Of a stretch of 47,855 nucleotides of DNA, positions 6,233 to 26,622 are shown piece after piece. How positions within the stretch are numbered: the stretch's first letter is position 1; every line of letters starts with the position of its first letter. The translations under genes and the position numbers were made by a program. Under the pieces are notes generated by a model. It saw only the letters and a list, made by a program, of their open reading frames with translations, searched no databases and was not told the DNA's origin. Source of the DNA: Candidatus Wallbacteria bacterium GWC2_49_35 (GTDB lineage Bacteria > Muiribacteriota > UBA9980); assembly GCA_001791795.1 (NCBI GenBank), contig MGFH01000153.1, positions 1-47,855 on the forward strand, read 5' to 3'.

Positions 6233-6357
6233 AGATATAGGCGTCCCTTTTCAGACGCCTGTATTTTTTTGTTATTTTCATTATTTTTTATTTTAATTTA
6301 ACAGTAAAATCAAGGCTTTTTAATTTTTTTTAATAGACGCAAGGAGCGTGGTTTATT

Positions 6358-12300: not shown

Positions 12301-15300
12301 TCGTTCTTATGCGACACCGTGCCGCCGCTGGCGTCTATGAACTATCCAAACACGCAGTACGTAACGACACAGAGCATAGATATTCTGATCAACCTTTCCG
12401 ACGCTACGAGCGGCATAGACCCGGCCACCGTGACGTTTGAAATCAAAAAGCAGGGCGAGACCGATTTTTCGGCGTTCTATCTGACGCCGGGCTCCGCGCT
12501 TACCTACGCCGGCAACGTTCTGAAATATTCAAGCGGCCAGCCTTACCAGGCGGGCACTCACGAGATCAGGCTCGCCCGCGCGAAAGACAGGGCCGGCCAC
12601 AATTACGCGACCGCGCCGTATCCTCCGGGCGGGCCGCTGCCGCTCACCTTCACTTTCAACGTGGTGAAGGACGGCCCCGTCGCGTCCATAATCCAGCCGC
12701 TGCCAAACGCCGTGGTTGATTACAACCTGGTCCCGGGCAGCGACGAAATAGTCATTAAGATCGAACCGCCCGCGGGCTCTCCGGGCGTGGACCCGACGTC
12801 GATCGAACTCGAGCTCACCGAGGGCACCAACCCCGCGCGCCTGGTCAAGGTCATAGCCGGCAGCGGTCTTACCTACAACGCGACCACCAAACTGCTTTCA
12901 TACAGGTACACCAACGTCGTGCCGCCGCTGCCGATCCCCGAAGGAAAGGTCAAGGCCAAACTCAACAAGGCCCTCGATTATCTCGGCAAGCCTTACGCAT
13001 CGAGCCCGAACCCTCTGACGTGGACCTTCATCTTTGACACGGTGGCGCCGAAACTGGTCGAATCGACCATTAACCCGATACCGAACAAGTATGCCCTCAC
13101 CGGCACGCAGGAAATCACCATGCGCCTGGATGACGGCCCCTTCGGCTCGGGCTTCGACACCGCCTCGATCCAGATCGAAGTTAAATACTATCCCGCAACC
13201 AACCCCGCCAATCAGCAAGTCACGGTCGTAAACGTCGGCACGTTCCTGAAATTCGAGAACAAGCCGCTGGCCGGAGTTACCGGTGATTATCTGCTCAGCT
13301 TCATACCGAGCCCGGGATACGCCGAAGGCACGGTCGACGTGAAACTCATCTCAGGCAAAGACCTCGCGGGACATCAGTACGTTTCAGACCCTTCGAATTC
13401 ATTCCCGTACTCATACAGATTCACGGTCGATCTGAATTCGCCCAAACTGCCGGACGATCTTGTCCAGCCAGGGCATATCGCGGTCGTACGCTACACGAAA
13501 AACAATATGCTGCCCATAATAATGCGCCTCGAAGACGGACACGGCTCGCAGGTCGACCCGAGTTCGATACAGCTTACCGTCGGGCCTAAAACATATAAAA
13601 TAGGCACGGACCCCAACCTCACCTACGTCACCGACGCCAACTCGCTGACGCTGACATTCAATCCGGCGACGCCTTACGGCGAAGGGACCGTCGACGTTTC
13701 GCTCGACGTCTGCAAAGATTTCGCCGGCCGCAGCGCGCTCGGCTTCCCGTCGAACGCGGCGACACCCTACAGGTTCGCCTTCGTGTGCGACACGGTAAAA
13801 CCGTCGCCGCAAAATCCAGTTCCGATGAATAATTCTTTCACTTCCGATAACACGAGCTTCATCTCGCTGCAGCTTAAAGACTTTACCAGCGGGGTAAACC
13901 AGTACACCATCACGGTGCGCGACAAGAACAGCAACGTTCTTCCGCTGATGCCGACGGCCACCACTTATAACCCGTCAACCTACGTTTTACGCACCCGCAC
14001 CCAGAACCCTTTGCCGGAAGGCACGGTTTCGGTCGAAGTGTGGTGCCAGGACAGGGCAACCAACGAAATAGAATCGTCGGAAATGCCTGCCCGCTACCGC
14101 TGGAGTTTCCTGGTAAGCATAGGCGGCCCGACGGTCGATATGACGAAGCCGTCGCCGGCGACGAACCCGAAATTCCCGCGCGTGAACGACAATCTGCAGA
14201 AGCTCGAATTCGTTTTCAACGATAACGGCGTCGCGCTCGAAGAGGCCAGCATAGCGCTCACGATACAGTATCCCGACGCGACCATACTGACCTTCAGGCT
14301 CAGCCAGCCGAATTATCTAACATACGACGCGCTCAACAAAAAAGTGACGTTCAATCCGGGCTCTAACAATCCCGCGGCCAATCCGCCCATAATGTACAAG
14401 GAAGGCACCATAAGCGTCAATATAGCAGCGAACAATCTGAGCGGCTTCCCCGTCGCCGGAAACGCCAACTGGCAGTTCCAGGTAGATTCGAAAGGCCCCT
14501 ACGTGATTCCCGGTACGCCCATGCCCGTGCCCAATTCGACCACGGGCAACCCGCAGGCATTGCTCAAATTAAAGATAAAAGACGACCTCGGCGTAATCGA
14601 TCCGGCCGAAATTTTATTCAGGATAGACAACACCGGCCTCACGGGCGGCTTCATAGACAATATAACGCTGTCGACGCTCGGGCCGGGCGGTCTTACACCG
14701 CTGACATTCAATCCCGCCGATGGCGAGATCGTGTTCGACCCCGCGAAAATGAATATCAATTTCGCCAGCGAAGTTACAGCCACGCTGAAACGCGCTAAGG
14801 ACGATCTCGGCAACGGCCTTTCGGGCGGCTCCTTCGCCTGGAAGTTCACCATCAACGCAACGTCGCCATGGGCCGATAATCCGACCATAAATAAAGTAAT
14901 CGGCGGCATCACGGGGCCCTCGATACCCGCAGGCGGCGCAAAGATAAATTCGACGCGCTTTATAACTTCAATGGAAATATACCCGCAGCAGGCCTCCGCG
15001 ACCATAAATAAAAACACGATCAAGATAAAGGTCGGCGGGACCGAATACTCTTATCTCGAGCCGGCCATGATGTTCACGCCGGTCGCCGGGCAGAATTACG
15101 GAATTCTCACTTTCGACACTGGAAAACTTGCGCCCGCGCCTTCAGTGCCTTCGAACGATTCGCTCGAAATATCGCTGACCGCCGTACAGAACAGCCTCGG
15201 CACCAATCTGGCCGCGCCTTATAAGTTCACCATAATCATCGATACGGCCGCTCCCACGATAGGCATCGAAAACCCCGCCGATAAGAGCATAATCACCAAC

Positions 15301-18300
15301 GCCAGGTCCATACTTTCGATAGAGCTGTTAGATCCGCCGGCGCACCGTATCGACACGTCGTCGATAGAATTCACCGTAAACGGCATACTGTTCAATTCGA
15401 CGACAGGCGGGCTCAGTTACAACCCCGTCACGCACAAGGCCGAACTGAACCCTATTACGGTAAACGTGCCGGCTAATTATTCCTACAAGCAGGGCAACAA
15501 TAACGTGTCGCTCACCAACGCGCGCGACGAGGCCGGAAACCCGATCGCCGGGCCGAAATCGTGGTCGTTCTTCGTCGATGACACCGGGCCGGTCGCGTTT
15601 TTAAGCACGGCGACGCCCGCGCCCAACACAGTCACCGGCGATCCCGGAGCGCTCATCGGAATAAAAGTGACCTCGGCCGGCACTAAGATCAATCCGGCCA
15701 CGTTCCTGGTCAATATCGTCAACCATACGACCAATCTTGGCGACATAGCCGGAACGGACGAAGTGCGCGGCATATCTTATAACGAGACCAGCGGCTTCTA
15801 TACCATAAACCCGGCTCTCCATCCTCTGCTGCACTTCAATAACGGCACGATAAGCGTCACGCTGAAAAAGGTCGAGAACCTGGCGGGCAATCAGCTTCAG
15901 AACCCCGTCAACTGGCAGTATTATCTCGACCGCATCGGCCCCGTCGCGCTCCGAAACTCGAAGACCATTGGTCTTCCCGACGGCCTGCCGGCGAGCTCGA
16001 TGACATCGAGCAGGACTCAGAAAGCGATATTCGAGATCGCCGACGACAACAATATATCGCTCATCGACGTCGCTTCGCTTAAAATGCAGCTGGTTTACGG
16101 CGGCTCAACAATCGAGGTCGGCGCATACAGCCCAGGATGCGAATACTCCGTTTCGCTGGGACGTTTCACCTACGATCCGTCGAAGCTCCAGCCGCCCGTT
16201 CAATATCCGGACGGCACGGTCGCCGTCATTCTCTCGCAGGCTAAAGACATACTGGGCAACAATCTCAGGCCGCACCTGCTGAACTCGTTCTTCTTCATAG
16301 TCAACACGCGCGGACCGAACGCCTCGAACCCGGCGCCGCTTCCAAACGAGGTCGTGTCCAGCCAGTATCCGAAGATATCTTTCGACCTGACCGCGGAACC
16401 TCCCGCGAGCATAGTCATGACCAACGAACGCCCAATAGAGCTCAGAGTGAACGGCGTGCTCTATTCAAGCAAGTCCATTCCAACGCCGGTAGTGAAGGCC
16501 GGAAACCGCGTGATCTTCGATCCGGCGCTCATAGGCCTTCAGTTCGGCTCCTCACAGATAACTTTCGAGATAGTCTCCGCGTTCGACTCGCTCGGCAACT
16601 CTCTGAGGCCTTCGACCGACCCGCGCATAGGCTCTTCAAACAGCTGGATCTTCAAAAACGACGTGACGCCGCCTTCGATCAGCGCGCCGACGCCGGCCCA
16701 CCAGAGCGTCGTCGGAAACCCCGCACCCGTAATTTCGGCCACCATTAAAGATAATCTTTCGGCCGTCAATAAAAATACCATAAAACTCAAAATAAACGGA
16801 GGAGCCGAAATAGATTCTTCGAAGATCTCATTCGATTCCTCGAGCGGCAGGATGAGCTGCGACCTTTCGCAGGCCGGCATCGCCGACAGGCTCGCCGCCG
16901 GTGACAACATCATCAGGATAACCGACGTGCGCGACTCTCTCGGTAACGCCATACCCGTTCCTTACGCATGGAACGTTTACCTCGACAGTCAGCCGCCCGA
17001 AGTGACGGCGGGTTCCGAGCGCCCTGTAAACGGCTCGAAGGGCAATATTTTAAGGCCCGTTATCTCATTTTCCGTCGCCGACAACCCTAAAATAGCCTAC
17101 GGCGTCGCCTACTACGGCGACGTTAACCGCAACTCCATAAAGGTCAGGATAACCAACGGCAACACCGACCGCATCGTAAAATACGGCGACATAGGCTTCT
17201 ACTACGCGAAACCGGCGGTCACTATCGATACCGCCCTTCTAGGCTTCAATCTGGTCGACGGGCTCTGCGAAGTGTCCGTGCTCGGTGAGGCGGGTGGAGC
17301 GACAAACGCCATGGCGGATGTTTTCGGCAACAAGATGGTCTCCGATTACACATTCTCGTTCACGGTCGTATCGAGCGGCCCCTATGTCTACGGCGTTCCG
17401 ACGCCGGCTCCTTCGAGCTCGGTGACCAACAACAAACCGCTCATCAAAATTAACCTGCGCTCCGACAAATCTACTATCAGGCCCGTCACGATAAAACTCA
17501 TGGTCGACGGCGTAACGTATACCACCGCGTCACCGGCGATGACCTACGCTGGCGACGAAGTGCGCTTCAACCCCGCCGACGCGGGCATAACGCTGCGCGA
17601 AGGCTCGATCGAAGTTAAACTGGCCGAGGCCGAAGACGAGCTCGGCAACAAGCTCGCCGCCGACACTTCGGGTATAAATCCCTGGACCTTCAGGGTCGAT
17701 ACGGCCGGTCCGACGGCGAAGGTCGGCGCAAACCTCATCAGCGACGATCTTCCGACCACCATGCTGATAACGGCCCAGCCGAGCGAAGCGCTCACGGGCA
17801 CGCCCTCGCTGAAGGCCACCTACGGCGACGGAACCGTCTCCTACCTGAACGTGACGGACACTTACGGCGACCAGAAATACTTCTCGGGAGCGCTCGAGCT
17901 CGCCTCGATCCCGAAATCGCCGGTGACGTTCACTTTCATCGGCACCGACGCAAACGGCGTATATTCCGAAACGCCCATAACCAATTTCAGCCTGTCGAAA
18001 ACATCTATAATGTCGCCGGTAACTTTCAAAAATCAGAAATATTACCTGGTCGGCCTGCCGGTCGCGCCCGACAACACATCAATATCTAACGTATTCACCG
18101 GGCTTCCGTCCGCCGGCTACACCATATGGGAAGGCGCCGATTCCAACAGGCAGATCGCCTATTACATGTTGCCCGGAAAGGCTTACTGGCTGCTCAATTC
18201 GTCCGGAGGCGACTTCAACGTGTCGGCCAACGGCTACGAAATGAGCGTTCCGATGCAGAAATTCGACATCAACCTCAGGGCCGGCTGGAACCTGGTATCA

Positions 18301-20538
18301 TTTCCTTACAACAGCCGCGTCAAGCTCAACCAGTGCACCATCAAGAGCGAGCAGGGCGAGGTTTCGATGTTCGCTTCCGACAACGTGTACACGGAGCGGG
18401 CGATGTGGTCTTACGATTACGATACGAGCGGGTCGCCGACCTTCTCGCTCAACCACTACGACGCGCACATCACCCCGTTCACCGGCTATTACATTTACGC
18501 CTACGCGGAATGCTCGCTGCGCGTGCCGCCGGTGTTCGTGACCAACGACGAGGTCAATAAATATCCTCTTCCGCCTTACGGCATGACGCTCACCGGCTCG
18601 GGGCTCGCGACGGAGCGCAGCCTGTGGTGCCGCCTCGGCGTTTCGTGCGACGGGTACCGCGACGAATATAACTACTTCGGCTTGAAGGACGGCGCGCAGG
18701 ACATAATAGAAAAAGACTGCGACCTGATGGAACCGCCCGTCAATCCAGTCGGCCAGGGGGCTTATCTTTCGGCCTACCTTGGCGAAGGCACCGCCGTCAA
18801 ATACTGCTCCGATTTCAGAAACACCCTCGCTGCACGCAAAAAATGGAACTTCGCCGTCAAAACCAATTTGAGCGGTAAAACCGCCGTCATGACGTGGCAG
18901 ACCCTTCGCGACAGGCTTCCTTACAACTACGACCTTATACTTTACGACCGCCTGAGCGGCGGCACCGTGAACATGCGCACGGCCTCGTCGTACCAGTTCA
19001 GCGCGGCTTCGACCGGCGAACGCCTGTTCTCGATAATCTTCAATCCCATAAACGCCTCGGGCGAAGGCGGCGGAACATCCGACACGACCAGGCCATCCAT
19101 AATATCGCGTTTGCCCTATGAAAATCAGCAGAGCGTGCCGGTTTCAAACTCTGTCTATCTGAGGTTCGACGAAAAACTCAACCCCGCCTCAGTCCAGAAT
19201 TCGATTACGCTCAGCAATTTATCGTCCGGCGGACTGGTTCGCGGCGTCACATATTACGACGAATCCATCAACGAGGTCACTTTCAAACCCGAAAACAATC
19301 TGGATTCGAATACCACCTACAGGGTGAGCGTCAACAACATAACCGACGCAGCCGGCAACTTCATGACGAAATCCGAATGGATGTTCTCCAGCGCAAAAGT
19401 TTCCGCGACCGAGCAAAACGTAAAAATAACTGTCAAAAAAGGCTGGAATCTCATTTCAGTCCCCGTATATCCGAAAGCTAAGAGCATCGGCGAAATCTTC
19501 TCCGGCATGAGCTCGAAGTTCGTTTTATATAACAGGAAGGGCAACCAGCTGTCGGTCTATAACGGCGTAGAGGCGTTCACGCCTTTCGTAATAGGCCCTG
19601 GAAACGGCTACTGGCTCTATTCTCACTCCGATTCCGACGTCGCGCTGAATATAGCCGGATACGCCGTGCCGGTCGACTCGTCGAGCGACACTCACTTCGA
19701 AATACCTCTTACGAAAGGCTTCAACCAGATAGGCGTGCCGTTCAACATCGGCGACGCCGAAACCATAGCCATAGCCGGCTTCGGTTTCAGGCTCAGAAGT
19801 TCCGCTTCGCCCGTCAACGTCACGGCCGCGATCGGTAACGGATATATCAGAAATACCTTATATACTTTCACCAAGCTCGGCATTTCCGGCCAGATAAACC
19901 CGCTTTCGTTCACCGACGTTAGCGCGAAACTGAGAAACGCCGAAGGATTTTTCGTTTACAGCAACCAGGACGACGTCGTGCTCAGGATACCGCGGCCAGG
20001 CGTAACTTCGCCCGCGCCCGCGGACAGAGGCGCGTCTAAAAAGTCGGCCGTGAAATTAAATATCGACCCGCTCAGAAGCTGGAAGGTCAAACTCGGGGTA
20101 ACGAGCCCGAAGATCGGATATCAGGATTCCGCCAACTATTTCGGCGTCGACTACGTGGCAGAGGACGGCCTTGACGCATGCGACGTTCTGAAGCTGATAT
20201 CGCCTGATCCCTGTCTGGCGTTGTATTTCGTTAAAGAAACGCCCGGCGGAAAATACACGCTGGCATCGGACATCAGGGCTTCCTCCACGCCGGTTTCGGC
20301 GGCAGGCGGCGGGCACAACGCTCTCAGATGGCGGTTTACGGTCGCATCCAGAGGCCTCGACTACGCCGACGGAAAGATCGTCTGGGACAGGTCGGCCCTT
20401 CCATCTTCCGGCGGGCTGGTCCTCGTTGACAGGCTGCAAAACACTGAAACCGACATGCGTTCGCGCGACGGCTACCCCGTCATAATCGACGGCGCCGCCC
20501 GCGAATTTGAAATAATATATACTCCGGAGATGAGATAA
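6358..20538 (+). CDS. Giant secreted protein (4726 aa): FG-GAP/integrin-alpha-like beta-propeller, Fn3, about 25 Ig-like repeats, SbsA/Big_5-like domain, duplicated C-terminal cassette
   Basis: Sec signal (MLKNRR + hydrophobic core). Seven FG-GAP-like blades, e.g. DFDNDGVNDVIVASP and FGFSVSCGDINGDGFDDIAIGAP (about 6585-8100). Fn3-like domain (VTWS...YHVQFS...YHYRVRV). Tandem repeats of about 115-125 aa ending D-x-x-G-N...W-x-F-x-[VI]-D (about 8800-17700). Big_5-like DTTRP...FDEKLNPASV...DAAGN at about 19081-19390. Confidence 0.85.
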   Translation: MLKNRRFAYLCLSVLIFSLSVIIFSPDPGRAFQYTGASTNTAPSANSVKIITPNSLTPITFAQAPTTCDWFCAGGRTLVADFDNDGVNDVIVASPYGEYNFSDQLAGMVMIYKGPVASGGTYSWDSGNWDAAPNTTATGYILGANVKEHTGFAIAAGNFGSRALVIGRPYETGTPSEVAVIFTRAIANLNGNATRIKPNMIDMKQMGDATQTLGKNDMKNFSLLIKNIPGANAPAVGGIYPHNSIGAASGMSLACGDVTGDSVDDIIIGCPNDGGTAGAVYIIKGKTNWKDNDSNTAPLEIDVTTMTAADGYKITGVNAGDFFGASLLVSNIYGDSRGELIIGATGAQAKGGVVIIPGGTIDSWNVLTYSIGLIAEAKGVISPSGSNGLRMGHALATGKFHDSGAANNDLIVTEFADADNATAAYVIFGNATLPAANPIPVDVTIKSNKTTERFGFSVSCGDINGDGFDDIAIGAPKGGIDATTGRGKAYVIHGMAYISGSELDLANAAGRPFMNSTFQTQGNYGRINTGDTNYFFGYGAAIGNVGGPNARAELIVSCYSETPTTTGVFTNAGYQGSTYVLFTSACPAKPSTNQLASPSSNGNQTVTWSNFSDPEGDTMKYYHVQFSRDATFQDFAQIVDSGVISVAANTTQHTENLTIDGTYHYRVRVGDDYSFSQFSDVKQVVINKNPPSDVTDITPINGQDVVALGGQRQIKIRVTDDTMCETQVTAEIWIKSQDDANANDVWDAGEGGTTIATPITVVGAITDYSFNVTEGLAKDSIRIFITGWDSAKNVIPEAVGGSRANPKIIYQIHSNKGPIVSAWRINPRTGFKKYTNDNNAKFVNDPQPIITANLTDDDSVVTNIKLKVQGTEYGVGPQLNYVDPGLTFTPSTDLVNGSLPVELTSADDGYGNPVQPITTTTGFVIDRTGPSAVEANCQPVNGGASDKPKPTIVFALNEFASGVVGCGVKDSLEIKIFNNNKWTYFTLEGNDYRENNVPKFPAAITIDASGAGTGFYLVKIDLNLTGLTLSNGATQAVIKAFDNLDNAMSGTTYTINFTVGLKGPQAEKREPQPDNVKVNSAKIKIRIWSDDGLAIDTLSVDLKVSGPPPTNNVIYQKIGCNQTELVYDVPTQILTFDPTKTSPATTFEQGTITVLLNDVKDSEGNQLRSRPLTWTFVFDSVGPAAGTDTVPAKDAWTNNNKQIVKMKVSDVTTKVVGTSIKFKVDGNIYTTSSLGMNYDPTTAWITFDPTTQAVTFADKVINVELVEAFDEAGNPLTAGANNTWSFKVDSTPPVAANFDPPDKAIRNINTLPIKCRLTDTFSGIDTNSVTFKINGTQITTYTIAGDGTLSYNATLPIGVNTCEVSVKDIATNTLAVTPAVWTFTIDNGRMQVINDATSPDPADNSYTNTAKNNFTLKMTKTSSGLDTASVTFDVLHGIPEATILGVVTAEEKSDHYLLKWTSSAGDFLEGPVKISMTKCQNLAGWNFLNAPFNWKFTYDKTKPFATIDAQSPSPAPNTIQTNNKVPITLKLDDALAGVDPASITLSIAPGGQAPPGADYTTADPQMNYDAINKILTFTTTNAYPDGTLTVTLKTTKDKATNTYDTVPASSIPYTWAFSIDTQLPVCLITRPPNDNDIVLMNDDYITATLGDPQGINTGEIKITIVSSVDNTLENMLPVTPPYFTFTPDSSTSGTLKYDPKLKTPALKFSDAVIDVYVYAKDNAGFAIVPNPIHRVYKVDTTGPVMIDGSKPPVADSRVPAPATTVGVSATKPLQIKCRLEDMPGGVKSDSITYKFTTTDAGGNVLTDTLTPLNVVNISPTVVEITYTIPNANLTAGAIPDVCTCEMEILTATDLTTALHPLQAKTTNKWSFFINNSNPIAINPYPAHNSVITSSSEEVGLTVFHAFGINTTSIEFYYNNVQALFPSSPGSYIFNYDDPTSKLSFKPLGTATSQWVEGTNTVELRHAKEKISGKDIANPVIWSFLCDTVPPLASMNYPNTQYVTTQSIDILINLSDATSGIDPATVTFEIKKQGETDFSAFYLTPGSALTYAGNVLKYSSGQPYQAGTHEIRLARAKDRAGHNYATAPYPPGGPLPLTFTFNVVKDGPVASIIQPLPNAVVDYNLVPGSDEIVIKIEPPAGSPGVDPTSIELELTEGTNPARLVKVIAGSGLTYNATTKLLSYRYTNVVPPLPIPEGKVKAKLNKALDYLGKPYASSPNPLTWTFIFDTVAPKLVESTINPIPNKYALTGTQEITMRLDDGPFGSGFDTASIQIEVKYYPATNPANQQVTVVNVGTFLKFENKPLAGVTGDYLLSFIPSPGYAEGTVDVKLISGKDLAGHQYVSDPSNSFPYSYRFTVDLNSPKLPDDLVQPGHIAVVRYTKNNMLPIIMRLEDGHGSQVDPSSIQLTVGPKTYKIGTDPNLTYVTDANSLTLTFNPATPYGEGTVDVSLDVCKDFAGRSALGFPSNAATPYRFAFVCDTVKPSPQNPVPMNNSFTSDNTSFISLQLKDFTSGVNQYTITVRDKNSNVLPLMPTATTYNPSTYVLRTRTQNPLPEGTVSVEVWCQDRATNEIESSEMPARYRWSFLVSIGGPTVDMTKPSPATNPKFPRVNDNLQKLEFVFNDNGVALEEASIALTIQYPDATILTFRLSQPNYLTYDALNKKVTFNPGSNNPAANPPIMYKEGTISVNIAANNLSGFPVAGNANWQFQVDSKGPYVIPGTPMPVPNSTTGNPQALLKLKIKDDLGVIDPAEILFRIDNTGLTGGFIDNITLSTLGPGGLTPLTFNPADGEIVFDPAKMNINFASEVTATLKRAKDDLGNGLSGGSFAWKFTINATSPWADNPTINKVIGGITGPSIPAGGAKINSTRFITSMEIYPQQASATINKNTIKIKVGGTEYSYLEPAMMFTPVAGQNYGILTFDTGKLAPAPSVPSNDSLEISLTAVQNSLGTNLAAPYKFTIIIDTAAPTIGIENPADKSIITNARSILSIELLDPPAHRIDTSSIEFTVNGILFNSTTGGLSYNPVTHKAELNPITVNVPANYSYKQGNNNVSLTNARDEAGNPIAGPKSWSFFVDDTGPVAFLSTATPAPNTVTGDPGALIGIKVTSAGTKINPATFLVNIVNHTTNLGDIAGTDEVRGISYNETSGFYTINPALHPLLHFNNGTISVTLKKVENLAGNQLQNPVNWQYYLDRIGPVALRNSKTIGLPDGLPASSMTSSRTQKAIFEIADDNNISLIDVASLKMQLVYGGSTIEVGAYSPGCEYSVSLGRFTYDPSKLQPPVQYPDGTVAVILSQAKDILGNNLRPHLLNSFFFIVNTRGPNASNPAPLPNEVVSSQYPKISFDLTAEPPASIVMTNERPIELRVNGVLYSSKSIPTPVVKAGNRVIFDPALIGLQFGSSQITFEIVSAFDSLGNSLRPSTDPRIGSSNSWIFKNDVTPPSISAPTPAHQSVVGNPAPVISATIKDNLSAVNKNTIKLKINGGAEIDSSKISFDSSSGRMSCDLSQAGIADRLAAGDNIIRITDVRDSLGNAIPVPYAWNVYLDSQPPEVTAGSERPVNGSKGNILRPVISFSVADNPKIAYGVAYYGDVNRNSIKVRITNGNTDRIVKYGDIGFYYAKPAVTIDTALLGFNLVDGLCEVSVLGEAGGATNAMADVFGNKMVSDYTFSFTVVSSGPYVYGVPTPAPSSSVTNNKPLIKINLRSDKSTIRPVTIKLMVDGVTYTTASPAMTYAGDEVRFNPADAGITLREGSIEVKLAEAEDELGNKLAADTSGINPWTFRVDTAGPTAKVGANLISDDLPTTMLITAQPSEALTGTPSLKATYGDGTVSYLNVTDTYGDQKYFSGALELASIPKSPVTFTFIGTDANGVYSETPITNFSLSKTSIMSPVTFKNQKYYLVGLPVAPDNTSISNVFTGLPSAGYTIWEGADSNRQIAYYMLPGKAYWLLNSSGGDFNVSANGYEMSVPMQKFDINLRAGWNLVSFPYNSRVKLNQCTIKSEQGEVSMFASDNVYTERAMWSYDYDTSGSPTFSLNHYDAHITPFTGYYIYAYAECSLRVPPVFVTNDEVNKYPLPPYGMTLTGSGLATERSLWCRLGVSCDGYRDEYNYFGLKDGAQDIIEKDCDLMEPPVNPVGQGAYLSAYLGEGTAVKYCSDFRNTLAARKKWNFAVKTNLSGKTAVMTWQTLRDRLPYNYDLILYDRLSGGTVNMRTASSYQFSAASTGERLFSIIFNPINASGEGGGTSDTTRPSIISRLPYENQQSVPVSNSVYLRFDEKLNPASVQNSITLSNLSSGGLVRGVTYYDESINEVTFKPENNLDSNTTYRVSVNNITDAAGNFMTKSEWMFSSAKVSATEQNVKITVKKGWNLISVPVYPKAKSIGEIFSGMSSKFVLYNRKGNQLSVYNGVEAFTPFVIGPGNGYWLYSHSDSDVALNIAGYAVPVDSSSDTHFEIPLTKGFNQIGVPFNIGDAETIAIAGFGFRLRSSASPVNVTAAIGNGYIRNTLYTFTKLGISGQINPLSFTDVSAKLRNAEGFFVYSNQDDVVLRIPRPGVTSPAPADRGASKKSAVKLNIDPLRSWKVKLGVTSPKIGYQDSANYFGVDYVAEDGLDACDVLKLISPDPCLALYFVKETPGGKYTLASDIRASSTPVSAAGGGHNALRWRFTVASRGLDYADGKIVWDRSALPSSGGLVLVDRLQNTETDMRSRDGYPVIIDGAAREFEIIYTPEMR

Positions 20539-21459
20539 ATGTTTAAATCAATCAGAAAAAAATCGATAATTTTCATTCTTGCGGCGCTCACGGTCAACCT
20601 CATGTTCGTCCTTTCGGCCTGCGGAGGAGGCGGGGGCGGCGGAGGCGTCACGCCCGTCACTCCTCCTCCGGTGGACCCCGTTTCGGGCCAGCCCGCCGCG
20701 GTCGGTAATTTCAGCGCCGCCTACGGGTCAAAATTCGGAGATATCACGCTCACCTTCAGCGCTCCCGCTCCGGCCGAGGGCTCGGCCGTTCAATCGTACG
20801 ACATCCGTTACGCCAACACCGCCATCACGGCAGCTCAATTTTCATCGTGCAGCCAGATAGTGCAGACCATGGCGCCCAAAAGCGCGGGCTCCACGGAATC
20901 ATTCACTTTCAACATATCGGCTCTCGTTTCCAGTTCCATATTCAAGGGCGCTAATATTTATTTCGCCGTCCAGTCGGCGTCGAATGCCGGCTACGTGTCC
21001 GCGATATCCAATATCGCCGCCATTAAGGCTCCCTGGCAGACTCAGGTAAAGGTCTATTACAAGAACGACGCTTCGAAATTCTCGATACTGGCGTTCGGCA
21101 TCCAGGGAAACGCCTCTTCGGGAACCGATTCCTTCGACGCCATCATGCCGCTCGAGCATGAATTGAACGATTTCTACGCCCACTTCACGACGGCGAGCGA
21201 CAAGCTGGTCGTAAATACCCATCCCGATTTCACCATCGACGACAAATGGACGTTCGACGTGACCGGCGCGCCGCTTTCGATCGTAAAGATAGAGTTCCCG
21301 GCGTTCAGCTCGAACGGCCCCTACCTCAACAACGTCGTGCTGATAGAAAAAACGACCGGCTCGAACCAACGCGAATTTGCCGTGCCGGACGCGGTATCCG
21401 CCGCCGAGTTCACGCTCGACGGTACCGGACGCGGCACCTACGACATTTATATCAATTAG
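20539..21459 (+). CDS. Lipoprotein with poly-Gly tether, Fn3-like domain and C-terminal domain similar to the giant protein's terminal domain
   Basis: Lipobox LSA-C (Cys codon 20620-20622) followed by 8 Gly. Fn3-like ITLTFSAP...YDIRY...YFAVQS...SAISN. The ATG directly follows the giant gene's TAA. Confidence 0.8.
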   Translation: MFKSIRKKSIIFILAALTVNLMFVLSACGGGGGGGGVTPVTPPPVDPVSGQPAAVGNFSAAYGSKFGDITLTFSAPAPAEGSAVQSYDIRYANTAITAAQFSSCSQIVQTMAPKSAGSTESFTFNISALVSSSIFKGANIYFAVQSASNAGYVSAISNIAAIKAPWQTQVKVYYKNDASKFSILAFGIQGNASSGTDSFDAIMPLEHELNDFYAHFTTASDKLVVNTHPDFTIDDKWTFDVTGAPLSIVKIEFPAFSSNGPYLNNVVLIEKTTGSNQREFAVPDAVSAAEFTLDGTGRGTYDIYIN

Positions 21460-21538: not shown

Positions 21539-21570
21539 ATAATGGCGCGCGGCAGCGTGCCATTATTTTT
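21539..21570 (+). terminator. Intrinsic terminator ending the giant protein/lipoprotein operon
   Basis: ATAATGGCGCGC-GGCA-GCGTGCCATTAT followed by TTTT; 12-bp stem with one G-U pair and a GNRA loop. Confidence 0.7.
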
Positions 21571-21658
21571 ATCCGGAGGTTTTCGCGCGCCCATTTTTTT
21601 TCCGGCAGTCAGGACATTTTACGAGTTTTATGATATAATTTAAACAGGGGGAGTAATT

Positions 21659-22063
21659 ATGAGAATACTCGTAGTGGACGATGATTTCGTCAGCCGCAAA
21701 AAAATGGAGATCATCATGCAGAATTTCGGCGAATGTGATTCGGCGAAAAGCGGCGAAGACGCTGTCGGCATCTTCGTGATGGCCTGCGAGTCACGTTCCC
21801 CCTACGACGTGATAGCCCTCGACATTTCAATGCCCGATGTCGACGGATTCGAAGTTTTATCGAAGATACGCCAGATCGAAGACTCACGCAACATCCAAGC
21901 CGAAAAAAGGGTGAAAGTAATAATGGTTACGGCGAAATCGGATAAGGCTACCGTGGTCGAGTGCTTTCAAAGCGGATGCAACGACTATATCGTCAAGCCC
22001 GCTAACTGGAAGATAGTATTTAATAAACTGGTCAAATTAAAAATACTTAAGTTTTCTCAATAA
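21659..22063 (+). CDS. Single-domain (CheY-like) response regulator
   Basis: ILVVDDD, phosphoacceptor in ALDISMP, MVTA and YIVKP; no output domain. Upstream TGaTATAAT (21631-21639) and SD GGGGAG. Confidence 0.92.
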   Translation: MRILVVDDDFVSRKKMEIIMQNFGECDSAKSGEDAVGIFVMACESRSPYDVIALDISMPDVDGFEVLSKIRQIEDSRNIQAEKRVKVIMVTAKSDKATVVECFQSGCNDYIVKPANWKIVFNKLVKLKILKFSQ

Positions 22064-22076
22064 AACGTTAAAAATT

Positions 22077-25000
22077 ATGAATAAAAATAATCGAAAAAAC
22101 AATGGGATCAATCAGAAAAAATCGATAATTTATTTTTTTATATTATCGCTTTTTTTTTCATATTTATTATTGAACGCCGTCGGCGTTTTTAACGCGAACG
22201 AGGCCTTCGGCCCGTCCGCGGCCGCCGCGCCCCTTGAACTGCGTTTTTTCCTCTTCGTCATCACGGCCATAGTAATTACCGCTTTCGGCCTCACTATTTA
22301 CGGAACGTTTTTCTCTCCGGCGCCGAACGCGGGCCCCGGCCGCCAGGCTTGCGGAGAAGACGGGCCCGCGACGGTCAAAACACCTTTAAATAAAGAAAAA
22401 GCACGAGAGCTGATAGCTGCGTGCTCGAATCTCATAATAACCCATAACAATATCGACGAAGCCGTCAATAAAATCTGCCAGTTGATACTTTCCTCTTTCA
22501 ACATAGACAGAATGCACGTTCTTGAAACGGAAAGCGGCGCGGTCCGCCGCGTCAGAACAGCTGAAAACTCCGGTGCCCGGATTCCAAACTCCGGTTCGTG
22601 CAATATCGCGGCGATGCCGAAAAGCTGGCGCTCATCGCTGGCAGCGGGGATCGTAATAAAAGGGACACCCGGCGGCTTTGAAGGAGACGAGCGAAAATAT
22701 CTTGAAGCGCTGAATATAAAATCGCTGATGCTGGCGCCGTTCAAACGCTCCCGCGAATTCAGCGGCGCGCTGTGTTTCGAAGACCTTACGAATGAGCGCG
22801 TGTGGTCGGAAGAGGAATTTCTGGTTCTGACCGCAGCCGCTGATATCGTCGGAAACGCTATCGAGCACGGACTCGCCGAAGAAGCGCTCGTCGAAAGTGA
22901 ATCTAAATTCAGGAGGATATGCACTCTGACCACGGACGCCGTCATAGCCTGCGACTTCGACGACCGCGTCGTGCTGTGGAACCTTTCGGCCGAGAAAATG
23001 TTCGGATATAAGGCGGACGAGGCTATGGGCAAAAACTTCTACCATCTGGTAGCCTCTCCTAAATACGACGCGGTTTTCCTTCCCGAGGTCGACTTTTTAA
23101 TGTCTTCGGCGATAAATATCGACGAAGGAAGAGCGTTCGAACTCAAGGTCGTCAACAAGAACAAAGAAGAGTTTCCGGTCGAAATGTCAATATCGGCCTT
23201 TAAAATAGGCGGGCGTGACCATACCGTGTGCATAATCCGCGATATAACCGAACGCAAGCGTAACGAAACCGATCTTCGCCAGCGCGACACGCTCCTTGAA
23301 TGCGTAAGCCTCATCTCGGAGCGGCTGTTCAAAGCCGCAAATATCGAAAGCGAACTGGACGGCGTATTAAAAAGCATAGGCGAAGTTTCAGGCGCCGACT
23401 GCGCGTACATACTTAAAAACAGGGCGCTTATCGACGGCAATATCATCGCCAACGCCGATTTCGTGTGGCACTCTGAAAAATGCTTGCTGCACGGCAACTG
23501 CGGCATGCTGAAAAATATCGATTGGGGAAAGGAAGAATACGGCCGCTGGTTCGACTCGCTCACTCATAACCGCATGATCCACGGAAGGGCCGAAAATTTT
23601 AACGAACGCGAAAGGGAAGTTCTCTACAAAAACAAAATCAGCGCGATCATTTTAATGCCGGTATTCGTCATGAAAAACCTGTGGGGCGTGCTGGGGTTGA
23701 ACGAGTGCCACGGAAAAAGGCGCTGGTCGGCCGGCGAGGCCGGCGCGATAAAGCTCGCCGCGAACGTGCTGGGAGCGGCGATCGAGCAACGGCGCAGCGA
23801 GGAACTTCAAAAGGCGAAAGACGCCGCCGAGGCCGCAAGCAGCGCCAAAAGCGAATTTCTGGCTAATATGAGCCATGAAATAAGGACGCCGCTGAACGCG
23901 ATAACGGGCATGACCGAAATATTGATGGACACCGGGCTCGACGAAAGCCAGCGCTGCTTCATGGATATAATCAATAAAGAAGCGGGGTCGCTTCTGAACA
24001 TAATAAACCAGATCCTCGACCTTTCAAGGATAGAAGCGCGCAAATACGAGATCGAAACGCTGGAGTTCGACGTTTTCGACGTCGTGGAAGATATGGCGGC
24101 GGGCTTCGCCCTCAAAGCGGAACGAAAAGGCATACAACTGCTGACGCGCGTCTCGCCTCTTATAAAAAAACGGCTTTGCGGCGATCCTTACAAGATAAGG
24201 CAGATCCTTGTCAATCTGGTCGCAAACGCAGTCAAATTCACCGATACCGGAGAGGTTTTTATATCGGTCGACCTTCTCGAAGAAACCGGCGAAGACGTTT
24301 CGCTTCTGTTCAGCGTCAAAGATACGGGCATCGGCATAGCCCGCGAAAAGCACGCGCTGATATTCGAAAGTTTCACCCAGTCGGACGGCTCGACCACCCG
24401 CAAATACGGCGGAACCGGACTCGGCACCGCCATCTCGAAAAAAATAGTAGAGCTGCTCGGCGGTTCGATAAGCCTCGAAAGCGAGCCGGGGCGAGGAAGC
24501 GCCTTCAGCTTCGACATCCGCCTGACGAAGGCCCCCGGGACTGGCGGGCACGAATTTTGCGGCTTCGATCTTTCGGCCCATAAAATAAGCGCGCTGGTCA
24601 TTTCGAACAACGCCGACTGCGGGGCGATAATAAGCGAATATCTTGAAGCCATGGGTGCCCTGTGCGGCGTCGCCCGAGGCTGGAAAGAAGCCCTGAGCGA
24701 GCTCGACGGCGACGGCCGCCCCGGCGCCGGCATGATTATAATCGACCTGCCCGTGGCCGACTGCGAGCTGTCAGCGATGATCTCCGAGCTGCGCTCGCGC
24801 GAAGCGTATTCTTCGGTACCGGTAATATTGCTGATATCGATCGGCGTCGCCAACTACAGCGCAAATTATAAAGCCGAAGGCGCCGCCGGATGCCTGGTCA
24901 AGCCCGTCAGGCTGAGGGAACTTTATCAGGTCGTATCGGGCGTTTTCAAACCCCGGACGGCGGAGTCCGGAGCGGCGCCTTATGAAAACTCCGGCGAGGT

Positions 25001-25829
25001 CGCCGTCGACGGCCGCAGCCGCCGGATACTGCTTGTCGAAGATTACGAACCTAACCGCCAGGTGGCGCTCATCCATCTCAATAAGGCGGGCTTCGAGGTC
25101 GACTCGGCCGTCGACGGCGGCGAAGCGCTGGAGCTTTTCACTCAGAAAGACTACGACCTGGTCCTGATGGACATTCAAATGCCGGTGATGGACGGATACG
25201 AATCCGCGGCGGCCATGCGGGCTTTCGAGAAGCTCAGAAACGCCCGCGAAAAAAACGGACGGGCCGCCGTCCCAATAATCGCCCTGACGGCGCACGCCAT
25301 AAAAGAGTTCACCGACCGGGCGCTAAAAACCGGAATGGACGATTTTCTTTTGAAGCCGCTGAAAAGAAAAGACCTGTACGCCATGTGCTGCAAGTGGCTG
25401 GAACGGACGGACGAGGCGGGCCGGACGAAAACGTCCCGGGAAGATCCGGATAAAATCGGCGCGAACCGAAGTACCCCCGATAGTTTCGATCTTCGCGGAT
25501 TAATGGAAGATTTTGACGGCGACTTCGAAGCCGTAAGCCGCCTGGTAAAATATTTCATCGAAAACGTAATGGCGCAGTCCGGCGTAATGCGCGGCGCGAT
25601 AGAAGCGGGCGAGCTGAAGACCCTCGAAAGGGAGTCGCATTCGATCAAAGGCGGAGCGTCCAATATTAACGCTCCGCTTGTGTCGAAAGCGGCCGCGGCG
25701 CTCGAGCGCGCCTGTGCGAAGGGCGACATGGAAGAGTGCAGGACGCTTTTGCTCGAATTCGAAAACGAGTTCGGACGTTTCGTAAAGGTAATCCGGTCAT
25801 TAAATCTGGCGGCGGACCTGTCTATTTAA
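22077..25829 (+). CDS. Hybrid sensor histidine kinase (2 TM, GAF, PAS, GAF, HisKA, HATPase, REC, REC, HPt)
   Basis: H-box FLANMSHEIRTPLNAI; N-box NLVANAVKFT; G1 DTGIGI; G2 GGTGLG. PAS WNLSAEKMFGY...RDITERK. Receiver LLVED...LMDIQMP...KP. HPt SHSIKGGASNI. Confidence 0.93.
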   Translation: MNKNNRKNNGINQKKSIIYFFILSLFFSYLLLNAVGVFNANEAFGPSAAAAPLELRFFLFVITAIVITAFGLTIYGTFFSPAPNAGPGRQACGEDGPATVKTPLNKEKARELIAACSNLIITHNNIDEAVNKICQLILSSFNIDRMHVLETESGAVRRVRTAENSGARIPNSGSCNIAAMPKSWRSSLAAGIVIKGTPGGFEGDERKYLEALNIKSLMLAPFKRSREFSGALCFEDLTNERVWSEEEFLVLTAAADIVGNAIEHGLAEEALVESESKFRRICTLTTDAVIACDFDDRVVLWNLSAEKMFGYKADEAMGKNFYHLVASPKYDAVFLPEVDFLMSSAINIDEGRAFELKVVNKNKEEFPVEMSISAFKIGGRDHTVCIIRDITERKRNETDLRQRDTLLECVSLISERLFKAANIESELDGVLKSIGEVSGADCAYILKNRALIDGNIIANADFVWHSEKCLLHGNCGMLKNIDWGKEEYGRWFDSLTHNRMIHGRAENFNEREREVLYKNKISAIILMPVFVMKNLWGVLGLNECHGKRRWSAGEAGAIKLAANVLGAAIEQRRSEELQKAKDAAEAASSAKSEFLANMSHEIRTPLNAITGMTEILMDTGLDESQRCFMDIINKEAGSLLNIINQILDLSRIEARKYEIETLEFDVFDVVEDMAAGFALKAERKGIQLLTRVSPLIKKRLCGDPYKIRQILVNLVANAVKFTDTGEVFISVDLLEETGEDVSLLFSVKDTGIGIAREKHALIFESFTQSDGSTTRKYGGTGLGTAISKKIVELLGGSISLESEPGRGSAFSFDIRLTKAPGTGGHEFCGFDLSAHKISALVISNNADCGAIISEYLEAMGALCGVARGWKEALSELDGDGRPGAGMIIIDLPVADCELSAMISELRSREAYSSVPVILLISIGVANYSANYKAEGAAGCLVKPVRLRELYQVVSGVFKPRTAESGAAPYENSGEVAVDGRSRRILLVEDYEPNRQVALIHLNKAGFEVDSAVDGGEALELFTQKDYDLVLMDIQMPVMDGYESAAAMRAFEKLRNAREKNGRAAVPIIALTAHAIKEFTDRALKTGMDDFLLKPLKRKDLYAMCCKWLERTDEAGRTKTSREDPDKIGANRSTPDSFDLRGLMEDFDGDFEAVSRLVKYFIENVMAQSGVMRGAIEAGELKTLERESHSIKGGASNINAPLVSKAAAALERACAKGDMEECRTLLLEFENEFGRFVKVIRSLNLAADLSI

Positions 25830-25942: not shown

Positions 25943-26083
25943 GTTATTACGTTCTTGTCCTGGTACTCACTTTTATTGTTATATTTTAGTATTTTTTTTG
26001 TGGAAAAATATCTATGACAAAATGGGTTTCAAATCAGGCACAAAGAATTCACTATTTTTTTACAATAATTGGGAGGAAGATCC

Positions 26084-26395
26084 ATGGAATTACAAGACAA
26101 AAGTTTAGTTTGCCGCGACTGCTCGAAAGAATTTACGTTCACAGCTTCAGAACAGGAATTCTACAAATCAAAAGGTTTCGAAAACGAACCTACCAGATGC
26201 GCTGATTGTCGCGCAAAACGCAAAAGCGGCTCGATGAGCAATCGTCGCGGCGGCTCAGGCGGCGCTGGCGGCGAAAGACAGCTCTTCACGGTTAACTGCT
26301 CGGACTGCGGAAAAGAAACTCAGGTTCCGTTCAAACCCGTTCAGGAAAAACCCGTTTACTGCCGTGACTGCTATCAGAACAAAAAAAGCAGATAA
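26084..26395 (+). CDS. Double zinc-ribbon protein (zf-trcl-like plus CxxC-x17-CxxC domain)
   Basis: CRDC...CADC, a Gly/Arg linker, then CSDC-x17-CRDC (VPFKPVQEKPVYC). SD GGAGGA at 26072-26077 favours ATG 26084 over TTG 26069. Confidence 0.88.
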   Translation: MELQDKSLVCRDCSKEFTFTASEQEFYKSKGFENEPTRCADCRAKRKSGSMSNRRGGSGGAGGERQLFTVNCSDCGKETQVPFKPVQEKPVYCRDCYQNKKSR

Positions 26396-26423
26396 TTAAC
26401 TTTAAAATATAGACTTATATTTT

Positions 26424-26460
26424 AAACAGGGACGCGATCTATCGCGTTCCTGTTTTTTTT
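26424..26460 (+). terminator. Intrinsic terminator after the zinc-ribbon gene
   Basis: AAACAGGGACGCGA...TCGCGTTCCTGTTT hairpin with a T8 tail. Confidence 0.88.
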
Positions 26461-26538
26461 CGTCCGGCGTTTTGCCGGTTTTATTTTAATTAGTTACCTT
26501 CCATTTATTAATAAATTATTATTTATTTGATTTTAATC

Positions 26539-26567
26539 TTGAAAAATTACGGGATTAATAGTAGAAT
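26539..26567 (+). promoter_or_regulatory. Sigma70-type promoter for the FHA protein/kinase operon
   Basis: TTGAAA-N17-TAGAAT. Confidence 0.55.
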
Positions 26568-26622
26568 ATTGTGGCGGCAGAAAACATACTATTAACGGGC
26601 CGCGGACAGTATTTATTTTTAT

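Follow-up and report, generated by a model that had tools for sequence, protein, structure and literature searches.

The window studied here, which is the whole 47,855-nucleotide stretch of contig MGFH01000153.1 from Candidatus Wallbacteria bacterium GWC2_49_35, carries the gene of a giant exported protein and, directly 3′ of it, the gene of a small putative lipoprotein. The question is whether the small protein holds the giant at the cell. The first-pass annotation had proposed that the lipoprotein docks the giant through B-B or A-B domain pairing. Overall, our results partly support this docking interpretation: the lipoprotein may grip the giant's tail as a likely tether to the cell envelope, a reading to which we give a probability of about one half.

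Gene pair and domain architecture

From its N-terminus, the giant includes a signal peptide, FG-GAP repeats, a long run of Ig-like repeats and a terminal A1-B1-Big_5-A2-B2 region (Table 1), so that it holds one B per A. No C-terminal sorting domain (T9SS-type or FlgD_ig tail) was detected in it. A1 belongs to an uncatalogued A family, and B1 and B2 are related to each other (BLASTP, E 9e-11). In addition, the model of B2 is a 10-strand beta sandwich (pLDDT 91.5), and its terminal conserved sequence is YTPEMR.

The lipoprotein begins with the signal MFKSIRKKSIIFILAALTVNLMFVLSAC, followed by G8. The lipobox and the poly-Gly run are preserved across a 9-member lipoprotein family, with LS[AG]C in 8 of the 9 members and LSASGC in P0011. 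The FN3 domain was found by fold match (Z 11.3, rmsd 2.5, 94 aligned), and the same region matches the NCBIfam hCaCC C-terminal region (E 1.1e-7). The lipoprotein had been described as carrying a B but no A, and this description stood: its B-like domain (B′) was found by profile, and the A profile detected no module A across the lipoprotein family at E <= 10. No sorting domain was found in the lipoprotein.

The giant's stop codon TAA (20536-20538) is followed by the lipoprotein ATG at 20539, and the zero-nucleotide gap claimed earlier was borne out. The claim that a single terminator closes both genes also held, as one terminator-like hairpin with a T-run lies 3′ of the lipoprotein gene, and the weak terminator-like matches within the giant gene (22 seen vs 22.9 expected from shuffles) showed no excess. 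Meanwhile, the hairpin 5′ of the giant gene ends the upstream gene and marks the 5′ limit of the unit, and a promoter-like site (21611-21639, 10/12 matches) is present 5′ of the next gene. The giant and the lipoprotein probably form a translationally coupled two-gene unit. The genes 3′ of the pair encode a response regulator, a hybrid kinase, an FHA protein and a Ser/Thr kinase, and no export genes were found within the window.

Table 1. Features of the giant-lipoprotein locus, in positions of the window
Feature	Position	Strand	Evidence or remark
Terminator-like hairpin, 13 pairs + T-run	6233..6276 (hairpin 6233-6266)	+	5′ of giant gene
Giant exported protein, 4726 aa	6358..20538	+	signal peptide, FG-GAP repeats, Ig-like repeats, A1-B1-Big_5-A2-B2
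Module A1, motifs GWNLVSFP and GYYIY	18031..18612	+	iterated A profile, 100.8 bits; phmmer A1 vs A2
Module B1, giant residues 4086-4232	18613..19053	+	118.5 bits vs diverse B profile
Big_5 bacterial Ig-like domain between the two A-B units	19081..19389	+	Pfam PF13205, E 3.8e-17
Module A2, motifs KKGWNLISVP, GNGYWLY and KGFNQIGVP	19393..20067	+	phmmer, A profile, co-fold
Module B2, C-terminal domain of giant	20068..20535	+	B profile; structure model
GGAG Shine-Dalgarno-like motif	20526..20529	+	within giant's last codons, 9 nt 5′ of lipoprotein ATG
Lipoprotein gene, 306 aa + stop	20539..21459	+	sequence, 9-member family
Signal peptide, lipobox LSAC, then Gly8	20539..20646	+	Cys28 codon at 20620-20622
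FN3 domain, lipoprotein residues 49-165	20683..21033	+	fold match; NCBIfam
B-like domain (B′), lipoprotein residues 165-306	21031..21456	+	B profile, hhalign, subtype model, co-fold
Terminator-like hairpin + T-run	21541..21575 (core 21547-21560; outer pairs read from sequence)	+	3′ of lipoprotein gene

Distribution of the B family

The B domain, a beta sandwich of about 145 aa, is absent from Pfam and NCBIfam and is widespread, with 972 representative proteins. It usually occurs in an A-B or B-A-B arrangement immediately N-terminal to a T9SS-type C-terminal sorting domain. For instance, the last B sits 60-160 residues from the C-terminus in 123 of 150 representatives, among which B-A-B followed by a tail was found in 64 and A-B followed by a tail in 47; a T9SS-type or FlgD_ig tail was present in 13 of 20 representatives scanned. 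The giant and the lipoprotein do share a terminal domain, as had been claimed, but this domain is not special to the locus. Because the B family is so widespread, domain sharing is weaker evidence for docking than first assumed.

The breadth of the family bears on another explanation, in which A-B units and orphan B domains are general modules of the region next to the cell envelope. The giant and the lipoprotein would not hold each other but would attach separately to some third partner, for example an outer-membrane protein or an envelope glycan. The two proteins would then be co-expressed members of one surface layer. The cargo proteins that carry B are highly diverse (VWA, PKD, dockerin, propeller or peptidase domains are found in them), and the aromatic A motifs would also suit glycan binding. 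In addition, orphan B domains are found in lipoproteins elsewhere that have no known neighbour: P0134 (PKD + B, with the B C-terminal) and a putative lipoprotein of genome G008 (frame L064:8977-10278), which does not adjoin the B-A-B protein of that genome. Against this explanation, the tight coupling and the strict co-occurrence of the two genes exceed what shared regulation needs, and in the co-fold described below the pair passed while each of the three controls scored 0.00. We regard such parallel anchoring as possible, at clearly longer odds than the tether.

Structural neighbours of B2 were also searched. The closest ones were weak, namely the chaperone-usher class 5 pilins CfaB and CS17 and the PorA N-terminal domain (PDB 8ehs, 3f85, 6kjk; Z 4.9-5.2, rmsd 3.1-3.6, 91-93 aligned), and Foldseek gave no match at E <= 0.001. 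Z values below 8 lie in the common beta-sandwich range, and B2 has no sequence relation to these proteins.

Relationship of the lipoprotein to the B family

The likeness between the C-terminal half of the lipoprotein and module B, which had been noticed at first pass, was not significant in pairwise comparison with B1 and B2 (E 0.17; the other pairing gave no alignment), and comparison with a B profile built from 9 sequences gave only a weak match (hhalign probability 4.7%, P 0.0086). A profile of 223 diverse B domains, in contrast, matched lipoprotein residues 165-276 (hmmsearch E 2.1e-6, 28 bits), and when run over all 23,302 ORFs of a six-frame genome translation it matched the giant and the lipoprotein only. 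The hhalign check suggested at first pass gave 95% probability against this profile (E 4e-8, 106 columns), in a register that agrees with the one proposed then. The real lipoprotein sequence scored 28.9 bits, compared with 14.7 for the best of 2000 shuffles and 4.3 for the reversed sequence. On this profile evidence, the C-terminal half of the lipoprotein belongs to the B family. Furthermore, all 9 lipoproteins scored higher with the model of the after-A B subtype; this model separated held-out sets 24/24 and 38/38.

In the reverse search from B′, the neighbour's B1 and B2 ranked 184 and 201 of the 223 B domains. Judged by sequence, B′ is not specially like the B domains of the neighbouring giant when compared with unrelated ones, which also speaks for parallel anchoring.

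All 5 related loci in which upstream DNA is retained have the two genes side by side, with 2-nt gaps and one 4-nt overlap in those with listed ORF coordinates. Of 87 genomes from the phylum, 5 encode the full-length lipoprotein; B modules of the giant are present in these 5 and in one further genome. The expected adjacency is conserved, but the adjacent pairs are all orthologues from one bacterial family and represent a single evolutionary event, not an independently recurrent one. Fusions of the giant with the lipoprotein were not found, a result that counts only weakly against docking.

These results also concern the simplest alternative, that an unrelated small surface protein lies 3′ of the giant and that the likeness reflects a common beta-sandwich family. 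The non-significant pairwise similarity and the generic B2 fold matches (best Z 5.3) would fit it. The profile evidence for B′, the abutting or overlapping genes conserved at family-level divergence, the co-occurrence of both genes and the passing co-fold make it very improbable.

Predicted complex

The lipoprotein was co-folded with the terminal A2-B2 unit of the giant, and the pair passed with ipSAE 0.71 (runs 0.75, 0.69 and 0.71), while the best of 3 controls was 0.00. Of 157 solved complexes, 116 scored this high, as did 2 of 215 mismatched pairs. Between runs, 97% or more of the contacts recur, and the partner pLDDT is 84 or higher. A search for solved sequence relatives of A2-B2 gave none at E <= 10, so that the predictor is unlikely to have passed the pair by recalling a known complex.

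The predicted contact places the B′ loop of the lipoprotein on module A, so that of the two pairings proposed earlier it is A-to-B′ rather than mainly B-to-B. A2 carries most of the interface (chain residues 18-112, 157, 168 and 187), and the conserved loop D197-F212 of B′ sits at it. The A2 interface residues are more conserved than the rest of A2 (0.81 vs 0.68, one-sided p 0.004, 5 orthologues), whereas the lipoprotein interface is less conserved than its remainder (0.71 vs 0.84). Among the interface residues are the two A-family positions of highest conservation, together with D197 and D200 of the lipoprotein; for family-conserved positions overall, neither side was enriched (p 0.38 and 0.55). 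The co-fold contained A2-B2 but neither A1 nor B1, so that in the native protein a domain of the giant itself may occupy, in cis, the place that B′ takes on A2. It is also possible that the model simply reuses the packing of A against B inside one chain for an orphan B that is homologous. Actual binding, and which A module serves for it, are inferred. None of the three tests run against the docking reading (profile similarity, gene adjacency and co-folding) refuted it.

Binding could also serve another role, in which the lipoprotein occupies the A face as an assembly factor, a cap or a chaperone, either in the periplasm or at the surface. It would then block self-association or premature folding of the tail, or pass the tail to an export machine. 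The co-fold applies equally to this role, and a third B could be a competitor or placeholder in a giant that already has one B per A. Moreover, loop 191-210 is disordered in the lipoprotein monomer model (pLDDT below 50), which would fit folding on binding. Nevertheless, a Gly8/Pro linker and an FN3 domain behind a lipid anchor would resemble an outward-reaching stalk rather than a chaperone, and export genes are absent from the window. We consider this role unlikely.

Proposed tether

In the tether reading, the pair would build a cell-attached fibre. The giant would be exported through its Sec signal peptide, with the A1-B1-Big_5-A2-B2 region as the cell-proximal end. This placement would parallel other phyla, in which A-B or B-A-B comes directly before the cargo-fixing T9SS sorting domain. 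The lipoprotein would carry its lipid anchor on Cys28, with the Gly8/Pro-rich linker and FN3 as the spacer between the membrane and the rest of the protein. Its B′, as an orphan after-A B-type domain in a protein without its own A, would dock in trans on the aromatic face that one of the giant's A modules presents (GWN, GYW and GFNQ motifs), mainly via the conserved DSFDAxMPxE loop, and would thereby tether the giant's tail to the membrane. Membrane anchoring and the leaflet of the lipid anchor, surface exposure, the secretion route and the giant's outer-membrane crossing are steps that we infer.

Comparison with known systems

The same A and B modules occur at the cell-proximal end of large exported T9SS cargo proteins of the FCB group and candidate phyla (Por_Secre_tail PF18962 or FlgD_ig-like). 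Unlike these, neither the giant nor the lipoprotein has a sorting domain, and the giant's last B ends the protein and is followed by the lipoprotein gene. T9SS machinery was not clearly found in the 77%-complete genome, and no route that would take the giant through the outer membrane was found.

Type V pili (Fim/Mfa) of Bacteroidota are similar in that a small lipid-anchored subunit with fibre-related domains holds the base. All subunits of these pili are lipoprotein precursors and polymerise by strand exchange after proteolysis, whereas the fibre here would consist of a single polypeptide of 4726 aa that bears a Sec signal. Neither the Pfam scans nor the fold lists contained a Fim/Mfa family or fold. 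Cohesin-dockerin (PF00963/PF00404) is likewise a modular beta-sandwich docking pair, through which an anchored protein retains a large assembly outside the cell. Neither protein matched cohesin or dockerin, and the predicted contact is a B-sandwich loop on an aromatic A face, not an EF-hand dockerin.

The giant RTX adhesins of Proteobacteria (LapA/LapG/LapD; SiiE with SiiA/B) resemble the pair in the co-encoded retention of a giant repetitive adhesin. Adhesins of the LapA/SiiE type use type 1 secretion, lack an N-terminal signal peptide and stay lodged in the outer-membrane channel, whereas the giant here carries a Sec signal and is paired with a lipoprotein. If the tether is true, the giant-lipoprotein pair would be a variant of anchor-plus-fibre systems.

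Organization of the giant-lipoprotein gene pair

The table lists the features of a gene pair that codes for an exported protein of 4726 aa (hereafter the giant) and a lipoprotein of 306 aa. The first-pass annotation had described the two genes as having no gap between them and one terminator for both, and both points were borne out. The TAA of the giant gene (20536-20538) abuts the ATG of the lipoprotein gene (20539), a terminator-like hairpin follows the pair, and weak terminator-like matches within the giant gene stay at the level of shuffled sequences (22 observed vs 22.9 expected). Because of the abutting codons, the internal GGAG, the flanking terminator-like sites and the lack of enrichment of such sites inside the giant gene, the two genes look like a single transcription unit with translational coupling. 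In addition, the conserved last residues of the giant, YTPEMR (window 20520-20541), overlap the bases that hold the GGAG of the lipoprotein start, and the E and M of this motif are invariant in five orthologues. This conservation may reflect a dual constraint, on the C-terminus of the giant and on the GGAG.

Features of the gene pair, of the tail of the giant and of related proteins in the source genome
Feature	Position	Strand	Remarks
Terminator-like hairpin	6233-6266		13 pairs, strong; before the giant gene, after the upstream large gene
Giant ORF	6358-20538	+	14,181 nt, 4726 aa
GGAG	20526-20529	+	within the last codons of the giant gene
Lipoprotein ORF	20539-21459	+	921 nt, 306 aa; directly after the giant ORF
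Terminator-like hairpin core and T-run	21547-21560		after the lipoprotein gene
Module A1	giant residues about 3892-4085
Module B1	giant residues 4086-4232
Module A2	giant residues 4346-4570
Module B2	giant residues 4571-4726
A-like half-module proteins	contigs C173, C64, C86, C52 (two), C13, C231, C119, C148 and C233 of the source genome		29-41 bits, iterated A profile

Several other genes of the window were also recorded. Upstream of the pair, a second very large exported-looking protein (2-6010, +; at least 2002 aa) runs past the 5′ end of the window; it has Thr/Ser/Ala-rich repeats and no Pfam family at E ≤ 0.01. Downstream (21659-25829, +) lie a response regulator of 134 aa, preceded by its own promoter-like site (10 of 12 matches), and a hybrid kinase of 1250 aa with GAF, PAS, HisKA, HATPase, two receiver stretches and Hpt. 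At two related loci (L003 and L014), ORFs of similar size follow the lipoprotein gene, a comparison made on sizes only. Furthermore, the genes at 26069-30739 form a signalling cluster. They code for a treble-clef zinc-finger protein, a protein of 747 aa that ends in an FHA domain and a Ser/Thr protein kinase; an anti-sigma-type HATPase_c_2 protein is encoded on the opposite strand. A KAP-family P-loop NTPase of 731 aa (34492-36687, -) lies between the housekeeping genes BacA and DHH/DHHA1 phosphoesterase.

Domain structure of the two proteins

In the giant, Pfam recognised FG-GAP repeats close to the N-terminus and, apart from these, a single Big_5 Ig-like domain (residues 4242-4344), which separates two A-B units in the tail (A1-B1-Big_5-A2-B2). 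B1 is related to B2 (BLASTP E 9e-11), and phmmer likewise relates A1 to A2 (domain E 0.00095 to 0.04). A C-terminal sorting domain (Por_Secre_tail, CHU_C or FlgD_ig-like) is absent from the giant in Pfam at E ≤ 0.01, and likewise from its last 845 aa and from the lipoprotein at E ≤ 10. The identical scan detected such tails, placed after B, in 13 of 20 other B-domain proteins.

The lipoprotein begins with MFKSIRKKSIIFILAALTVNLMFVLSAC, followed by eight glycines and a proline-rich stretch. Its n-region KSIRKK, hydrophobic core and lipobox LSAC (fitting [LVI][ASTVI][GAS]C) are kept across the lipoprotein family, and this N-terminus has the form of a standard lipoprotein signal, a predicted substrate of signal peptidase II. 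A search of 5.8 billion clusters gave just eight full-length relatives (52-96% identity); remoter matches align over the FN3 part alone, and distant homologues carry PF00041. In the lipoprotein model (pLDDT 65.7), residues 49-165 form an FN3 domain, and the beta domain behind it has nine strands. The FN3 assignment agrees with structural matches (Z 11.3, rmsd 2.5, 94 aligned; dozens of FN3 chains with Z above 9.3), and this region also matches the C-terminal region of TIGR00868 (E 1.1e-7). The strands of the beta domain appear to follow the order of the ten strands of B2, in a model with pLDDT below 50 at residues 191-210 and 220-234.

The C-terminal half of the lipoprotein as a B domain

The C-terminal half (residues 165-306) had earlier been read as parallel to B1 and B2 of the giant. 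By pairwise comparison this did not hold: BLASTP of the lipoprotein against the giant and against B1 and B2 gave nothing significant. A local B profile of nine sequences gave a marginal match (hhalign probability 4.7%, P 0.0086), in the register proposed before. The likeness emerged with a diverse B profile, built from 223 near-full-length B domains of the 150 best of 972 representative proteins. When run over the six-frame ORFs of the genome (3.67 Mb; 23,302 ORFs), this profile matched two proteins and no others: the giant (118.5 and 110.3 bits) and the lipoprotein (28.3 bits, E 2.1e-6, residues 165-276). All nine members of the lipoprotein family scored 22-31 bits, and hhalign of the family against the diverse profile gave a probability of 95% (E 4e-8, 106 columns). 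As controls, 2000 shuffles of the C-terminal half reached at most 14.7 bits and its reversed sequence 4.3 bits, compared with 28.9 bits for the half itself. Given the profile E value, the hhalign probability, the family-wide scores and these controls, the homology to the B family is real.

The hallmarks of B are also found in the C-terminal half, namely the N-terminal W, the FG...A.G.D..D...P loop, the W.F.V strand and the L.L.[DE] strand; the positions that carry most information in the profile are matched by W166, G187, A192, D197, D200, P204, W237, F239, V241, L268 and E270. The proposed register stood over the aligned columns, but the pairing of YDIYIN with FEIIYT falls outside them: the profile alignments end at residue 276-282 of 306, with the last ~25 residues outside. 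As had been claimed, the lipoprotein has a module B and no module A (none at E ≤ 10). Searching with phmmer over the genome with B1, B2 and the C-terminal half returned no additional copies.

In the reverse search, a profile of the C-terminal half matched best the B domain of another representative protein, P0096 (22.3 bits, E 1.2e-6), and B1 and B2 of the giant ranked merely 184 and 201 of 223. Since unrelated B domains match best and those of the neighbour rank low, the two proteins have a domain family in common and not a recent copy; the B of the neighbour is not specially close.

A and B as domain families

An exhaustive search with the nine-sequence profile showed the B family to be large: 972 representative proteins matched at E ≤ 0.001, of which 85 reached ≤ 1e-10 and 4 reached ≤ 1e-30. 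No scoring model of Pfam-A or NCBIfam covers A or B (B1, B2, the C-terminal half and canonical B-only proteins), and a PDB search found no sequence relative of either among solved structures. Of the PDB searches made with profiles of A, the A3 profile gave matches confined to FlgD/T9SS-tail columns (T9SS, type IX secretion) introduced by short proteins, and these were rejected, as was the linker or FN3 noise that alone was returned with A1; A4 gave no match. The model of B2 (pLDDT 91.5, pTM 0.87) is a beta sandwich of ten strands in which one loop is long and ordered. The solved folds nearest to it are generic and score weakly, with Z of 5.3 at best and of 4.9-5.2 for class 5 pilins and the PorA N-domain. 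With Foldseek, nothing in the PDB matched at E ≤ 0.001, and A2-B2 matched only unnamed clusters in the ESM Atlas.

Among the 150 best B representatives, 137 have a module A (iterated profile). The last B lies 60-160 residues from the C-terminus in 123 of the 150 and is protein-terminal in 10. The commonest layouts are B-A-B then tail (64/150) and A-B then tail (47/150), and the cargo otherwise varies widely in its domains, among them VWA, PKD, dockerin and propellers. Given the position of B near the C-terminus, the sorting tails after it, the frequency of A and the recurrent layouts, A-B is a foot module of T9SS-type cargo, widespread and placed at the end nearest the cell. In addition, the B domains before and after A are separable subtypes, and the held-out sets were classified without error (24/24 and 38/38). 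B1, B2 and all nine lipoprotein copies belong to the after-A subtype. The lipoprotein as supplier of a missing before-A B for A1 was rejected on this score.

In at least ten other exported proteins of the source genome, an A-like half module comes immediately after the signal peptide. Its motif is LKxGFNFVSFT ... GKGYIVK ... LKxGFNLVGFSK, and module A looks like an internal duplication of it.

Conservation and distribution of the pair

The lipoprotein gene stands directly after a gene ending A-B-...-A-B in all five related loci with upstream DNA (L001, L003, L013, L014 and L049, the last from a sister-genus genome, G086, with a giant frame of at least 4995 aa). Two more loci (L002 and L015) begin inside the lipoprotein gene and stand outside this count. 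Where ORF coordinates are at hand, the two genes are 2 nt apart (L003) or overlap by 4 nt (L014). Of 87 genomes from the phylum, five encode the full-length lipoprotein (the source genome, G086, G087, G089 and G090), and the B modules of the giant occur in these five and in G008; four more genomes of the same bacterial family have neither. As all pairs are orthologues of one bacterial family, the adjacency is one retained evolutionary event and not an independent recurrence. The check suggested earlier, whether B lipoproteins stand consistently beside B-ended giants, thus came out positive at the five loci of this family that have upstream DNA.

Lipoproteins that end in an orphan B do appear to recur, judging from two cases. 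G008 has a 434-aa frame (L064:8977-10278) with a signal peptide, QIGC and a C-terminal orphan B (67 bits); its B-A-B protein, which ends on B (L065:7123-11361), is on another contig, and the two are not adjacent. P0134, a representative protein of 306 aa, is lipoprotein-like (signal LLASGC) with a PKD and a terminal orphan B. In five genomes of other phyla, only large B-bearing frames were found where orphan-B genes beside A-B proteins were sought. Fused forms of the C-terminal half were absent from proteins of 537-2000 aa, which is weak evidence.

Predicted contact between giant and lipoprotein

A co-fold of the lipoprotein with the end of the giant had been suggested in the first-pass annotation. 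The single co-fold made took A2-B2 (381 aa, 5-row alignment) and lipoprotein residues 48-306 (9-row alignment), with A1 and B1 left out. It gave an ipSAE of 0.71 (runs 0.75, 0.69 and 0.71), and the best of three controls gave 0.00. In the calibration, 116 of 157 solved complexes attained the ipSAE mark, as did 2 of 215 mismatched pairs; these counts are rough with user alignments. The runs agreed in at least 97% of contacts, with partner pLDDT of at least 84. This pass favours binding of giant and lipoprotein without demonstrating it. The co-fold may simply transfer the within-chain packing of A and B to a homologous orphan B.

On the giant side, the predicted interface consists mainly of A2 (chain residues 18-112, 157, 168 and 187) with B2 loop residues 268, 270 and 271. 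It contains W18 and W74, the Trp of GWN and GYW; no other positions of the A family are as conserved as these two. The lipoprotein contributes residues 167-227 of its B-like half, above all 197-212 and 224-227, and FN3 loops 64-68 and 125-127; among its contact residues are D197, D200 and P204 of the D..D..P loop of the B family. Conservation among orthologues is higher in the A2 interface than in the rest of A2 (0.81 vs 0.68, p 0.004) and lower in the lipoprotein interface than in the rest of the lipoprotein (0.71 vs 0.84); for family-conserved positions overall, neither side is enriched (p 0.38 and 0.55).

A caveat to docking is that the giant already holds one B per A. Furthermore, since A1 and B1 were left out of the co-fold, the A2 face bound by the lipoprotein may be filled in cis in the native giant.

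Interpretation and comparison with known systems

In the best-supported reading, a trans A-B contact joins the lipoprotein to the tail of the giant, which it would tether or at least bind. Such a contact would stand in, in this lineage, for the attachment by sorting domain that A-B feet have elsewhere. Less probable rivals are that A-B and the lipoprotein are anchored in parallel to a third component, that the lipoprotein is an assembly or capping factor, and that the two proteins have no link at all. A far broader proposal, to which we give roughly one chance in five, is that A and B, both uncatalogued, form a receptor-ligand pair of wide distribution, which makes up the cell-proximal B-A-B foot of secreted proteins in many phyla. 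By this proposal, the foot would be split here over two genes, with a lipid-anchored orphan B plugging into the A of a 500-kDa fibre, a docking for diderm envelopes of the cohesin-dockerin kind. Perhaps the lipoprotein would then serve a whole family of surface proteins as a common docking post, because at least ten other exported proteins start with an A-like half module.

Wallbacteria are placed among diderm Terrabacteria in one preprint (10.1101/2021.05.31.446380). No clear sign of T9SS machinery emerged from this genome, which is 76.8% complete: SprA_N had no match, control genomes also being silent, and PorV reached 24 bits vs a cut-off of 250. PorU matched through its tail region alone, and four T9SS-tail-like domains occur in other proteins.

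If the reading is true, the locus is a natural split of the foot into two polypeptides, and therefore the A-B contact can be tested with simple recombinant proteins. It would also be a possible way for a diderm outside Bacteroidota to hold a giant adhesin without a known sorting signal. With A and B named and their ligands found, thousands of 'hypothetical' surface proteins in candidate phyla would receive an annotation. The analysis is of value mainly because it brings to light two large domain families absent from the catalogues, together with a simple two-protein test of their role.

Compared with known systems, T9SS cargo has a sorting tail after A-B, whereas giant and lipoprotein have no such tail. 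The cohesin-dockerin pair differs in that neither domain was found in giant or lipoprotein by Pfam scans. For the type V pilus (Fim/Mfa), no family was found in Pfam and none among the fold matches listed, a list that is not exclusionary. A literature search of titles and abstracts gave no description of the A and B domains or of the giant-lipoprotein pairing. An anchor subunit with its fibre is a known kind of system; what the libraries searched did not yet contain are the A and B domains, the A-B contact in its split form and the lineage.
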